Shown piece after piece: positions 177 to 1,581 of a DNA stretch of 7,216 nt (position 1 is its first letter; each line of letters opens with the position of its first letter). The notes beneath the pieces are model-generated. The model was not told where the DNA came from and made no database searches. It was given only the letters and a program-made list of their open reading frames with translations. The position numbers and the translations under genes were made by a program. The DNA is from a virus (Duplodnaviria; Heunggongvirae; Uroviricota; Caudoviricetes): IMG/VR virus record IMGVR_UViG_2548876935_000005; one strand, written 5' to 3'.

Positions 177-380
177 ATGAGAAATCATACCACACACCCG
201 CAAGGGCGGGACTCGCACAACCTGAATAAATACATCTGGCGTTTTATCGCCCTGAGCACGGCACAACCGCGCGTAATTCACATCGAGGCCACCAGCGAAC
301 AGGAAGCACGCCAGCAATCTCCTGATGGCTGCGTGATGGTATTCGCCGCCCGTATTCGCCAGGAGGTGGAACATGTGTAA
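177..380 (+). CDS. hypothetical small protein (67 aa from ATG 177; ORF track extends to TTG 39, alternative ATG 87)
   Basis: GAGG at 168-171 sits 5 nt before ATG 177. The upstream part of the tracked ORF overlaps the promoter/operators and starts with TTG. The stop overlaps the start of the next ORF (ATGTGTAATG at 373-382). No family recognised. Confidence 0.45.
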   Translation: MRNHTTHPQGRDSHNLNKYIWRFIALSTAQPRVIHIEATSEQEARQQSPDGCVMVFAARIRQEVEHV

Positions 381-597
381 TGCAACATGGCCTGATGCAG
401 CGGTAGACGCTATCAAAACGCTGATGGATTCACTTATTGAGATTTCTGCTATCGCTGGTGTGGCGCATAAACACGCAGCCAGAGAATCAGAATGCATCTC
501 CCATTATTTAGCATTTGTGCAGCTAAAAGCCGATCAGGCACTGGATAAGGCCGGAAAAATTATCATGGCTGATGTGCAGGAGGTGCACCATGCATAA
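373..597 (+). CDS. hypothetical small protein (74 aa)
   Basis: Strong RBS AGGAGGTG immediately upstream of ATG 373. Start overlaps the stop of the previous ORF and the 3' end overlaps the next start (590), indicating translational coupling. Confidence 0.55.
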   Translation: MCNATWPDAAVDAIKTLMDSLIEISAIAGVAHKHAARESECISHYLAFVQLKADQALDKAGKIIMADVQEVHHA

Positions 598-1060
598 CCT
601 GTCAATTTCTGACCTTAACAGCATTCAGTTTGACGAGAAATTTACCGGGCAGTTGCTGGTCAATGTGGAGAACGGGCGCATAGTGCGTAATTACCACCTG
701 CCGGATGGTGCAATTGCCGGAAGCGTTGAAGCATTGCTGGAACTGGCGGAACGTGCGCGACTGATTAAGCCGTCAACGAGCCATCACGATGATGATCTGC
801 ATTTTACCGGGCGTATGGTGAGTCACTACGAAAACGGCGTTGAAGTATCCCGCGAACGGCTGCGTGATGATCGTTTTAATTCCCTGAAACGGGAATTTGA
901 TGGCGCACCGGAAGATGCAGCGGGCGCATTGTTGAGCGTTGCTGACATGATGAAAGCTGCATATTTTCTTATCAATACCAGTGGCTACAAGTCAGAGGGT
1001 GAAATGATTCTTAGTATTGCGTCGGACTATGCGGAATATGTGGCAGAGACGCGTTACTGA
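590..1060 (+). CDS. hypothetical protein (156 aa; ORF track start 572, ATG 590 preferred)
   Basis: GAGGTG precedes ATG 590 (MHNLSISDL...). Long uninterrupted ORF with mixed acidic/hydrophobic composition. No family recognised. Confidence 0.6.
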   Translation: MHNLSISDLNSIQFDEKFTGQLLVNVENGRIVRNYHLPDGAIAGSVEALLELAERARLIKPSTSHHDDDLHFTGRMVSHYENGVEVSRERLRDDRFNSLKREFDGAPEDAAGALLSVADMMKAAYFLINTSGYKSEGEMILSIASDYAEYVAETRY

Positions 1061-1085
1061 AGAAAATTCACGGAGGATGTAAGCC

Positions 1086-1286
1086 ATGCATAATCATGAA
1101 GCGCATGTACCCGTAGTGCTTAATGTGCCAGATGATTTCACCGGACGCGTACTGGTTTACCTGGATAAAGGGAAAGTGAAATCACAATGCCGACTGAAAA
1201 GTAATGAGATTGTTGGTTCTCCTGAATTTTTTTCTGAACTTTGTATTCGTGCGGAAATAAAACCGGAACTGCTGACAGGAAAATAA
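1086..1286 (+). CDS. hypothetical small protein (66 aa)
   Basis: GGAGG lies 9 nt upstream of ATG 1086; same strand and tight spacing with neighbours. Confidence 0.5.
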   Translation: MHNHEAHVPVVLNVPDDFTGRVLVYLDKGKVKSQCRLKSNEIVGSPEFFSELCIRAEIKPELLTGK

Positions 1287-1290
1287 AACC

Positions 1291-1581
1291 ATGAAAAAGA
1301 AAAATTCTGGCTTTACTGCCAGCGGCCTCTCTCGGCCTGAAATCCGCCCCGGTGATATTTTCCGGGACACCAGACGCGGGGGACGGGTGGTTATTCGTCA
1401 CGTTACGCCAGGCAATATCACCTACCGCCGTGAGGCTTACGAATATGACTGCGTAATGCCGCGCCGTCAGTTTGATCGTGATTTTATTCTGGTGGAAAAC
1501 AAACAACAGGCAGTGGCGAGACGTGCAGCCACGAATATTAAAAAAATCCGGGCAATGTTGGTTGCGGGAGGTAAGAAGTGA
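1291..1581 (+). CDS. hypothetical small basic protein (96 aa)
   Basis: Starts 5 nt after the previous stop. Its stop TGA (1579-1581) overlaps the GTG start (1578) of the replication gene (GTGA overlap). Confidence 0.5.
   Translation: MKKKNSGFTASGLSRPEIRPGDIFRDTRRGGRVVIRHVTPGNITYRREAYEYDCVMPRRQFDRDFILVENKQQAVARRAATNIKKIRAMLVAGGKK

Follow-up and report, generated by a model that had tools for sequence, protein, structure and literature searches.

Which functions are carried by a row of small open reading frames (ORFs) that runs, on one strand and mostly with overlapping stop and start codons, into a replication gene? The question is raised by IMG/VR virus record IMGVR_UViG_2548876935_000005, a stretch of 7,216 nucleotides (the window, positions 1-7216) that corresponds to the whole Escherichia coli draft contig AIAQ01000239.1 of assembly GCA_000446365.2. 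An initial annotation, made from the letters alone, had described positions 177 to 1581 as five translationally coupled ORFs of no known family, expressed from a regulated promoter of a satellite, and had proposed them as candidates for interference with a helper phage. Judged from its gene content and from complete copies, the region is probably the repressor-controlled early operon of an AlpA-type satellite that resembles the phage-inducible chromosomal islands (PICIs) and sits at the tRNA-Thr gene thrW of E. coli. The chain itself is a lineage-specific allele of a satellite operon that is very common and has been little studied, and that is headed by a gene for a protein like the cell division inhibitor Icd of phage P1. 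What functional evidence there is for relatives points to the host and not to helper interference.

Identity of the island

The complete genomes closest to the window were 99.9% identical to it and 89 bases longer across the stretch. Two complete copies of the island (L001 and L068) measured 14 kb, lay beside tRNA-Thr without structural or lysis genes, and encoded an integrase, a 265-aa protein, AlpA (PF05930 in Pfam, E = 2.4e-19), an AntA antirepressor, a divergent YlcI/YnfO gene, the early operon, an origin, ProQ/FinO, PerC and cargo; the window covers only the part from the early operon onward. Strain N1420 is one example of a carrier of the intact island. Both copies displayed the features described for Gram-negative PICIs, namely an integrase at an att site, AlpA, a rep gene with an iteron origin, a size of about 10-15 kb and no structural or lysis genes (PMC6092414). 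The satellite nature claimed at the outset was supported by the presence of the thrW integrase, AlpA, AntA, the operon, the iteron origin, ProQ/FinO and PerC in the complete copies. No nucleotide match to the window was obtained in a phage collection, and at the protein level ORF1, the first gene of the chain, matched a single record there, a capsid-forming PICI.

Organization and translation signals of the operon

Six genes follow one another in the region. The families of the middle ORFs are designated here as A (ORF4 and the repeats of a 121-aa gene of relatives; phrog_340), B (ORF2; phrog_5146) and C (a 77-aa gene of relatives; C-terminal part of phrog_2512).

177-380, plus strand: ORF1, 67 aa, Icd-like
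373-597, plus strand: ORF2, 74 aa, family B
590-1060, plus strand: ORF3, 156 aa, fusion made by a deletion
1086-1286, plus strand: ORF4, 66 aa, single A domain
1291-1581, plus strand: ORF5, 96 aa, DUF4222
1578-3383, plus strand: replication protein (replicase), 601 aa

Most stop codons overlapped the next start (ATGNNTAA or GTGA). The junctions of ORF1 with ORF2 (ATGTGTAA, 373-380) and of ORF2 with ORF3 (ATGCATAA, 590-597) were 8-nt overlaps and that of ORF5 with the replicase a 4-nt overlap (GTGA, 1578-1581), with a gap of 25 nt between ORF3 and ORF4 and a spacing of 4 nt between ORF4 and ORF5. The coordinates and strand of the five ORFs and these three overlaps agreed with the initial annotation; a near-abutting chain at ORF3/ORF4 did not, as the 25-nt gap follows a premature TGA, and five ORFs could not be upheld as the native state, ORF3 being two fused genes of an ancestral chain of six.

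Anti-Shine-Dalgarno pairing amounted to -11.6 kcal/mol for each of ORF2, ORF3 and the replicase (AGGAGGT), -9.5 kcal/mol for ORF4 and -7.2 kcal/mol for ORF1, as compared to a background over the whole window with a mean of -2.9 and a 5th percentile of -7.9 kcal/mol. Each start codon lay 5-7 nt past a Shine-Dalgarno site set in the end of the preceding ORF, and the site was good at five of the six starts; of the ribosome-binding sites attributed to every ORF, that of ORF5 was weak (-4.3 kcal/mol). Terminator-like sites were not detected on the plus strand between 81 and 3383. The combination of overlaps and Shine-Dalgarno sites fits a predicted translational coupling of the chain, which would be lost for ORF4 in this copy because the premature stop of ORF3 removed the overlap.

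Every ORF showed pairwise ratios of nonsynonymous to synonymous substitutions (dN/dS) of 0.08-0.50 against relatives differing by 2-40% in DNA (0.28-0.35 for ORF2), and the changes were mostly in third positions. These values bear on the possibility that the small ORFs are chance open frames without coding function. The ORFs are indeed short, and ORF2 to ORF4 belong to no Pfam family; however, low dN/dS with an excess of third-position changes, strong Shine-Dalgarno sites, PHROG matches at E-values from 1e-20 to 1e-59, hundreds of database members and a conserved gene order make chance frames extremely improbable. Two antisense ORFs (141-497 and 1138-1590) matched no family.

Conservation of gene order among related islands

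The comparison comprised 15 annotated loci and 49 IMG/VR loci recovered with ORF4, and the gene order was kept in every related island examined. The order YlcI (minus strand), Icd, (B), A-A, (C), A, DUF4222, replicase was unbroken in all 49 IMG/VR loci. In the annotated islands the layout was integrase, AlpA, divergent YlcI/YnfO, Icd-like gene, two to seven small ORFs and replicase, the small ORFs being joined by overlaps of 8, 11, 4 or 1 nt, and junction motifs were kept across loci of differing gene content. These islands were integrated at thrW, roxA, a tRNA-Pro gene, yljB and tqsA, and the same layout was present in a capsid-forming island of Klebsiella and in Edwardsiella hoshinae. The initial annotation had named lack of conservation in related elements as evidence against the chain; conservation and synteny were found instead.

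Part of the region was matched in 1578 of 5426 complete E. coli genomes (~29%). The most widely shared segment, 135-368, comprised the last part of the leader together with ORF1 and showed ~93% identity, and the ORFs behind it were mosaic; a scan of species-representative genomes with a single protein yielded only three loci. An operon headed by an Icd-plus-leader module of this frequency is annotated almost wholly as hypothetical proteins.

The Icd-like protein at the head of the operon

ORF1 matched NF033153, the family of Icd-like host cell division inhibitors, over residues 19-62 (E = 3.8e-20; 71.7 bits vs. a cut-off of 25), as well as phrog_6196 (3e-45). Residues 18-60 aligned to residues 11-50 of P1 Icd with 40% identity (E = 3e-7), keeping the WRF, E-ExEAR and A-R positions. 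P1 Icd binds FtsZ and blocks division, and its FtsZ-binding and antibacterial core has been located to residues 12-51 (PMC11897509); by this alignment ORF1 spans nearly the whole core, from which we infer that it would inhibit FtsZ. In some islands an Ash domain (PF10554) is inserted between the same N-terminus and the Icd domain, ORF1 representing the short form.

Island homology begins only at about position 135, and other annotations and gene callers start the Icd-like gene at the ATG at 177. Long N-terminal extensions of Icd-like genes (134 and 121 aa) were considered and rejected, since they span the promoter and the operators and the one of 134 aa enters the divergent gene. RefSeq/GenBank (PGAP) records carry extended Icd-like genes of 121-324 aa (L001 8977-9381, L004 2566-2931 and L003 8182-9156), which in L001 and L003 run across or into the divergent gene. 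Such extensions are probably annotation artefacts, and the 'long N-terminal extension' of the Icd-like gene of ECOR61 (366 nt) may be the same artefact.

ORF5, the replicase and the origin

The last small gene could also be assigned to a family. ORF5 matched PF13973 (DUF4222; E = 3.9e-19, 68.4 bits vs. a cut-off of 27) and was 48% identical over its full length (E = 2e-23) to ECs_1581 of Sakai, that is, RgdR, a prophage regulator of type III secretion encoded by the LEE (locus of enterocyte effacement) and of motility in enterohaemorrhagic E. coli (PMC10877973). In the window, in L001, L005-L007 and L012-L015 and in the Sakai locus (L016), the series of small ORFs ended with the DUF4222 gene, which overlapped the replicase by 4 nt, and its adjacency to the replicase held in the tabulated E. 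coli islands except EcCIMP1. This arrangement suggests that RgdR is primarily a satellite early-operon protein tied to the replicase.

The replicase consists of a conserved N-terminal domain of ~140 aa followed by D5_N, a DUF5906 helicase and Pox_D5 (Pfam, PHROG). Its N-terminal 140 aa were 47% identical to those of Sakai ECs_1582, whose C-terminal part differs. This N-terminal domain (window 1578-2000; L016 8601-9030) was shared by the island replicases at 47-83% identity, in front of C-terminal parts of the DUF5906/D5, DUF927-TOPRIM or RepA type; no Pfam family covered it, phrog_2850 being its only match. Immediately downstream lies the origin:

3412-3744: replication origin, with GGTAGACAG-type iterons in two groups on either side of sequence with ~30% G+C (repeat families D1 and D2; composition)

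Iterons around an AT-rich centre correspond to the described layout of E. coli PICI origins (PMC6092414).

The position of ORF5 makes a functional link between DUF4222 and the replicase plausible. It also underlies an explanation by which the small proteins, DUF4222 above all, would assist replication together with the replicase's conserved N-terminal domain, for instance by taking part in origin recognition, loading or copy control. Whether the helicase is of the DUF5906/D5, DUF927-TOPRIM or RepA type, the DUF4222 gene immediately precedes the replicase gene and overlaps it by 4 nt, and the ~140-aa N-terminal domain is common to all these replicases. However, the DUF4222 gene of EcCIMP1 is located elsewhere, another lies beside int/xis in a lambdoid prophage of CFT073, the replication gene plus ori of EcCICFT073 sufficed for plasmid maintenance (PMC6092414), and the known phenotypes of RgdR concern LEE and motility. 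We consider an accessory role of this kind unlikely.

A deletion fusion and a premature stop in ORF3

Compared with relatives, the window lacked 88 bp through a deletion between two copies of the 11-bp repeat TGCGTGATGAT; one further base of difference was A7 in place of A8 at 18-24.

861-871, plus strand: deletion junction, with the single remaining copy of TGCGTGATGAT, at which two BLAST segments overlap
1058-1060, plus strand: premature TGA, AGA in the closest relative (A-to-T at 1058)

Relatives (L001) possess two genes here, of 121 and 77 aa, with an 8-nt overlap (ATGCGTGA), the 121-aa gene being a tandem repeat of the ORF4-type domain. The deletion joins both genes in frame and removes the start of the 77-aa gene; on the predicted structure it takes out the helix of the second A domain. 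The TGA costs 11 codons and the 8-nt ATGCATAA overlap with ORF4 that is present in relatives. ORF3 thus comprises an intact A domain, an A domain without helix and a family C protein without its last 11 residues, and the ancestral chain, as reconstructed from relatives, counts six small ORFs, with 8-nt overlaps at four of the junctions.

The deletion junction was found in none of the 5426 complete E. coli genomes and in none of the 49 IMG/VR loci. The exact 156-aa product (P0171) was present, with the same island surroundings, on 13 draft contigs, and related alleles with the deletion but different C-termini on ~36 further contigs. By these occurrences ORF3 is a genuine, minor, lineage-specific allele, and it is unsuitable for study as a native protein.

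The small-ORF cassette is therefore damaged in this copy by the deletion fusion, the new stop and the loss of ORF4 coupling, and the operon in this genome might be a decaying remnant, the chain being inherited but no longer selected as a unit. Decay would account for the fusion and stop in ORF3, for the truncation of the island by an IS66-family insertion, for the restriction of the allele to 13 contigs of one lineage and for the many frameshifted, fused and truncated variants in databases. Nevertheless, the deletion preserves the frame, the remaining ORFs are undamaged, as are all regulatory sites, and identity outside the deletion reaches 99.9% to copies without deletion and stop; a remnant appears to us somewhat unlikely.

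Families A, B and C

ORF4 matched phrog_340 (2.2e-20) and shared 34% identity with either half of the 121-aa gene; ORF2 matched phrog_5146 (1.7e-48). No sequence match in Pfam, NCBIfam, PADLOC or PDB was obtained for families A, B and C, and a PDB sequence search with A-A and B-C profiles plus ORF1 and ORF5 gave nothing below E = 0.4. AlphaFold2 models of the intact 121-aa A-A protein (mean predicted local distance difference test, pLDDT, 64.8) and of a B-C protein (pLDDT 58) carry information at the level of secondary structure only; from them, the A domain is predicted as a beta-hairpin plus helix and B, at low confidence, as a helical hairpin. The statement that none of the five ORFs belonged to a known family was consequently wrong for ORF1 (NF033153, 3.8e-20) and ORF5 (PF13973, 3.9e-19), and the profile and structure searches leave it standing for A, B and C.

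A HMMER scan of 1.84 billion representatives with the A profile retrieved 62 clusters (at 50% identity), nearly all of 50-130 aa, with the consensus FTGR-hLVYhENG-V...F-ELA-RAG-Y. The domains were found in several combinations in databases: B-C fusions (154 aa, annotated in O157:H7), A-A-C fusions (196 and 197 aa), A-B-C and A-B-A, the 240-aa protein P0224 in which A, B and A are fused, single-A hybrids from recombination between the repeats, and a distant relative (P0233) with a Bro-N antirepressor-type domain fused to an A domain. Split forms dominated, the 121-aa protein occurring on at least 1000 contigs and the 77-aa protein on several hundred, vs. ~80 contigs for fusions. Fusions of 196 aa as the common form had been suggested by cluster sizes and were dropped after members were listed; a duplication linking B and C was likewise discarded, as ORF2 and the 77-aa C protein shared no BLASTP similarity.

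Part of this variation depends on a run of G that lies where the 121-aa gene meets the 77-aa gene and doubles as Shine-Dalgarno site (L001 9930-9956; equivalents in L017-L065). Its length was G6 in 23, G7 in 9, G8 in 3 and G10 in 2 of 37 IMG/VR loci, and ranged from G5 to G10 among isolates; G6 gives overlapping genes, G5 or G8 a fusion, and G7 or G10 an early end of the first gene. Fused and split gene calls at such slippery junctions are, together with Icd-like genes extended over their own promoter, the two recurrent annotation errors that we flag here.

In line with the initial annotation, these proteins could be helper-directed derepressors or interference factors, and as such would bind repressors or morphogenetic proteins of the helper. 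Their position in a satellite early operon, the Bro-N and A fusion of P0233, the fusion of A, B and A in P0224, and a cassette content that differs between islands, as expected of specificity determinants, are consistent with that view. On the other hand, A, B and C have no similarity in sequence or fold to a known derepressor or interference protein, a separate AntA antirepressor is already present on the island, and many fusions are rare products of frameshift or recombination. We therefore doubt a helper-directed action, and regard A, B and C as narrow, modular families that are probably exchangeable accessory modules of the operon.

Very tentatively, and with a low expectation that this holds, A, B and C may form one modular adaptor complex that makes the operon a tunable sensor of a phage or host protein, coupled to the Icd effector and to replication. 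It is an equally slender idea that the composition of such an adaptor is reshuffled by A-repeat recombination and G-tract slippage. If the adaptor existed, the virulence effects of RgdR would be a side-effect of a satellite protein of replication or sensing.

Promoter, operators and candidate repressor

Upstream of ORF1, a control region was delimited with the following elements:

39-67, plus strand: sigma-70-type promoter, TTGACG-17-TAAATT (consensus scan, 9/12 positions)
28-38, 44-54 and 69-79: three 11-bp palindromes GTGTT(C/T)AACAC, candidate operators (repeat family D1)
74-176, plus strand: structured 5' leader; hairpins span 77-96 and 108-140 (inverted repeats I2 and I3)

The palindromes lie to either side of the -35 element and extend over the expected start of transcription, and they were strongly enriched (6 strand-matches vs. 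0.21 expected; none of 200 shuffles equalled this number). The promoter was assigned to 39-67 because of its position among these operators, and a promoter-like site among operators far above chance is in agreement with the regulated promoter that had been placed ahead of the chain. The leader folded with a minimum free energy of -39.5 kcal/mol (z = -3.4), none of 200 shuffles folding as well, and from about 135 onward it was ~93% identical across roughly 1500 E. coli genomes. No Rfam family was found in the whole window at E up to 1, and an antisense RNA of the P1 C4 or P4 CI type in the leader, which had been considered, was not supported by any Rfam match.

The divergent YlcI/YnfO-like gene starts 23 nt before the window (L001 8799-8978), and its product (MATKAVNAKSQTVAARVPHEV...) looks, from its sequence, like a ribbon-helix-helix protein. 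The first 58 residues were identical between E. coli and Edwardsiella. Across loci (L004-L065 plus L001 and the window), YlcI/YnfO alleles co-varied with the intergenic palindromes, which were GTGTTYAACAC, CTGGAATCCAG/GTGGATTCCAC or GTGTCCGACAC, and one allele together with the GTGTTYAACAC palindromes was common to E. coli and E. hoshinae. Because of this co-variation, the YlcI/YnfO-like protein is our candidate for the operator-binding repressor; the operators are probably bound by a protein of this family, and the pairs of alleles and palindromes suggest several repressor-operator 'immunity types' among the islands. The A7 at window 18-24, A8 in the closest complete genomes, lies between the YlcI-like start codon and the first operator.

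Genes downstream of the origin

Behind the origin, the window carries ProQ/FinO, PerC, a lipoprotein, a membrane protein and small unassigned ORFs, and ends in an insertion sequence (IS):

3753-4579: ProQ/FinO RNA chaperone gene (PF04352, 9e-23) and PerC-family regulator gene (PF06069, 1e-31), with a 4-nt overlap
4600-6520: cargo of 33-47% G+C, with genes for a predicted lipoprotein of 380 aa and a membrane protein of 107 aa
7163-7216: end of an IS66-family element, ISEc8, the last 54 bases, without match in the island

The ISEc8 end interrupts an HTH_17 gene (here 7059-7166; 175 aa in intact copies). The 5' end of the window falls just within the repeated YlcI/operator module and its 3' end in the IS element, both typical assembly break points. 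Satellites often bear accessory or defence genes at the position occupied here by the cargo at 4600-6520. The 380-aa lipoprotein and the 107-aa membrane protein matched no family and no PADLOC model, and PADLOC-DB 2.0 revealed no defence family at E ≤0.1 among 10 window proteins. PerC homologues from other PICIs influence LEE expression (PMC11773190).

Proposed mechanism

The following sequence of events is proposed. On derepression, RNA polymerase would start at about position 74 and produce one mRNA with the leader, the Icd-like gene, the variable cassette of small proteins, the DUF4222/RgdR-like gene and the replicase. Ribosomes would load at ORF1 and re-initiate from ORF to ORF through the embedded Shine-Dalgarno sites and the stop/start overlaps, as for icd-ant1 of P1. 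The Icd-like product would halt FtsZ-dependent division, and the replicase would fire the adjacent iteron origin, amplifying the island.

Several observations weigh against this scheme. Promoter-like sites were no commoner in the region than expected by chance in the consensus scan. As for translation, the Shine-Dalgarno site of ORF5 is weak (-4.3 kcal/mol), and the computed accessibility of the start regions of ORF1 to ORF3 was 0.25-0.31 vs. a background of 0.43 ± 0.13, a weak difference of about one standard deviation. The structure models of A, B and C are of low confidence and match no known fold. The RGD tripeptide (R20) of RgdR has been reported as needed for LEE activation (PMC10877973), and ORF5 reads EIRPGDIFRD in place of FMRGDIYRD and so does not contain it; an RgdR-specific activity of ORF5 is doubtful on this comparison, though its family membership holds. 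A PICI would be expected to carry a module for packaging or interference, but no terminase, Rpp or capsid family was detected among the genes downstream of the origin (Pfam, PHROG, annotation), and the 3' part of the island is cut by the IS66-family element, so that this copy may be defective. Finally, Sakai ECs_1578 and ECs_1579, taken by geometry as equivalents of the two small ORFs (61 and 63 aa) hit by suppressor insertions in the ECOR61 growth-arrest locus, match no window ORF, and the ECOR61 phenotype, which is described below, is therefore not directly transferable.

As candidates, the operon offers a YlcI/YnfO-type repressor with allele-specific operators and three small families without known fold.

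Comparison with known systems

In satellite P4, the left operon contains small ORFs, including kil and the derepressor epsilon, ahead of the primase alpha. The island shares with P4 the position of small early ORFs ahead of the replication gene of a satellite, whereas the annotation of the complete island L001 contains none of sid, delta and psu, and the replicase architecture differs. Icd-like genes have been reported in P4-like elements (PMC13612085).

Among PICIs, EcCICFT073 and EcCIMP1 present the same succession of int, alpA, small ORFs, pri/rep, iteron ori and PerC. In EcCIMP1, a different island at the same thrW site that is mobilised by a helper phage (PMC11773190), an Icd-like gene likewise precedes six small overlapping ORFs and a primase. 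Lambda, phi80 and Kapi1 have served as helpers of related E. coli islands. In contrast with both, EcCICFT073 and EcCIMP1, our island has other small ORFs, another replicase type and no recognised packaging module, and it carries the divergent YlcI/YnfO module with operators between antA and icd.

The immI operon of P1 (c4-icd-ant1/ant2) resembles the island in that a structured leader is followed by icd as a small opening cistron, with a stop codon that overlaps the start of the next gene; in the P1 record, 4 nt are common to icd and ant1, and ant expression is annotated as depending on icd. Unlike P1, the island has small proteins and a replicase downstream and no Ant antirepressor there, no C4-type antisense RNA was found in it with Rfam, and its control apparently relies on a protein repressor and palindromic operators. 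ORF1 also differs from P1 Icd by the absence of the C-terminal 20 residues.

The Sakai prophage Sp7 (O-island 51) shows an Icd-like gene (ECs_1577), three overlapping small ORFs, RgdR (ECs_1581) and a 4-nt overlap onto the primase, RgdR being the fifth gene of the chain ECs_1577-1582 from the Icd-like gene to the primase (L016 7501-10733). It differs in being a capsid-forming island with a DUF927-type replicase and in its other small ORFs, which are unrelated to ORF2 to ORF4.

Functional data are available for the prophage-encoded 'PCD' system of ECOR61, which likewise begins with an Icd-like gene and unites it with overlapping small ORFs and a primase in one block. There, a phage accessory protein (orf24) triggers growth arrest via the Icd-led operon; suppressor insertions hit the Icd-like gene and both small ORFs right after it, and six linked genes including the primase were needed to rebuild the effect, which was abolished without the Icd-like gene (bioRxiv 10.1101/2023.04.06.535777). 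The ORF lengths of 186 and 192 nt and the overlaps of 8 and 1 nt given for ECOR61 recur in Sakai, for ECs_1578 and ECs_1579 within the first three genes of the chain (ECs_1577-1579). From this geometry we infer that ECOR61 carries an Icd-to-primase operon of the Sp7 type, which would include an RgdR homologue.

These results open a reading in which defence comes first: the operon would be a phage-triggered module of abortive infection or superinfection exclusion, its Icd-like protein, with help from the small ORFs and the replicase, arresting or killing the cell on derepression by a protein of the invading phage, and satellite replication would be secondary. The ECOR61 and ECOR15 (P4) results, with Icd-like genes as suppressor hits, six linked genes needed and the effect gone without the Icd-like gene, agree with such a module, as does the same operon layout in the window. 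However, no PADLOC model matches the window proteins, two small ORFs of the ECOR61 type are absent from the window, the reconstituted ECOR61 effect is described as muted, and arrest may simply result from satellite induction running out of control, as has been reported for EcCICFT073 (PMC6092414). We regard defence as the primary function as rather unlikely, and retain the reading of a satellite early operon that would act on host division and on island replication. One conserved PICI-type operon thus links P1 Icd, RgdR and the ECOR61 growth-arrest locus, which have so far belonged to separate literatures.

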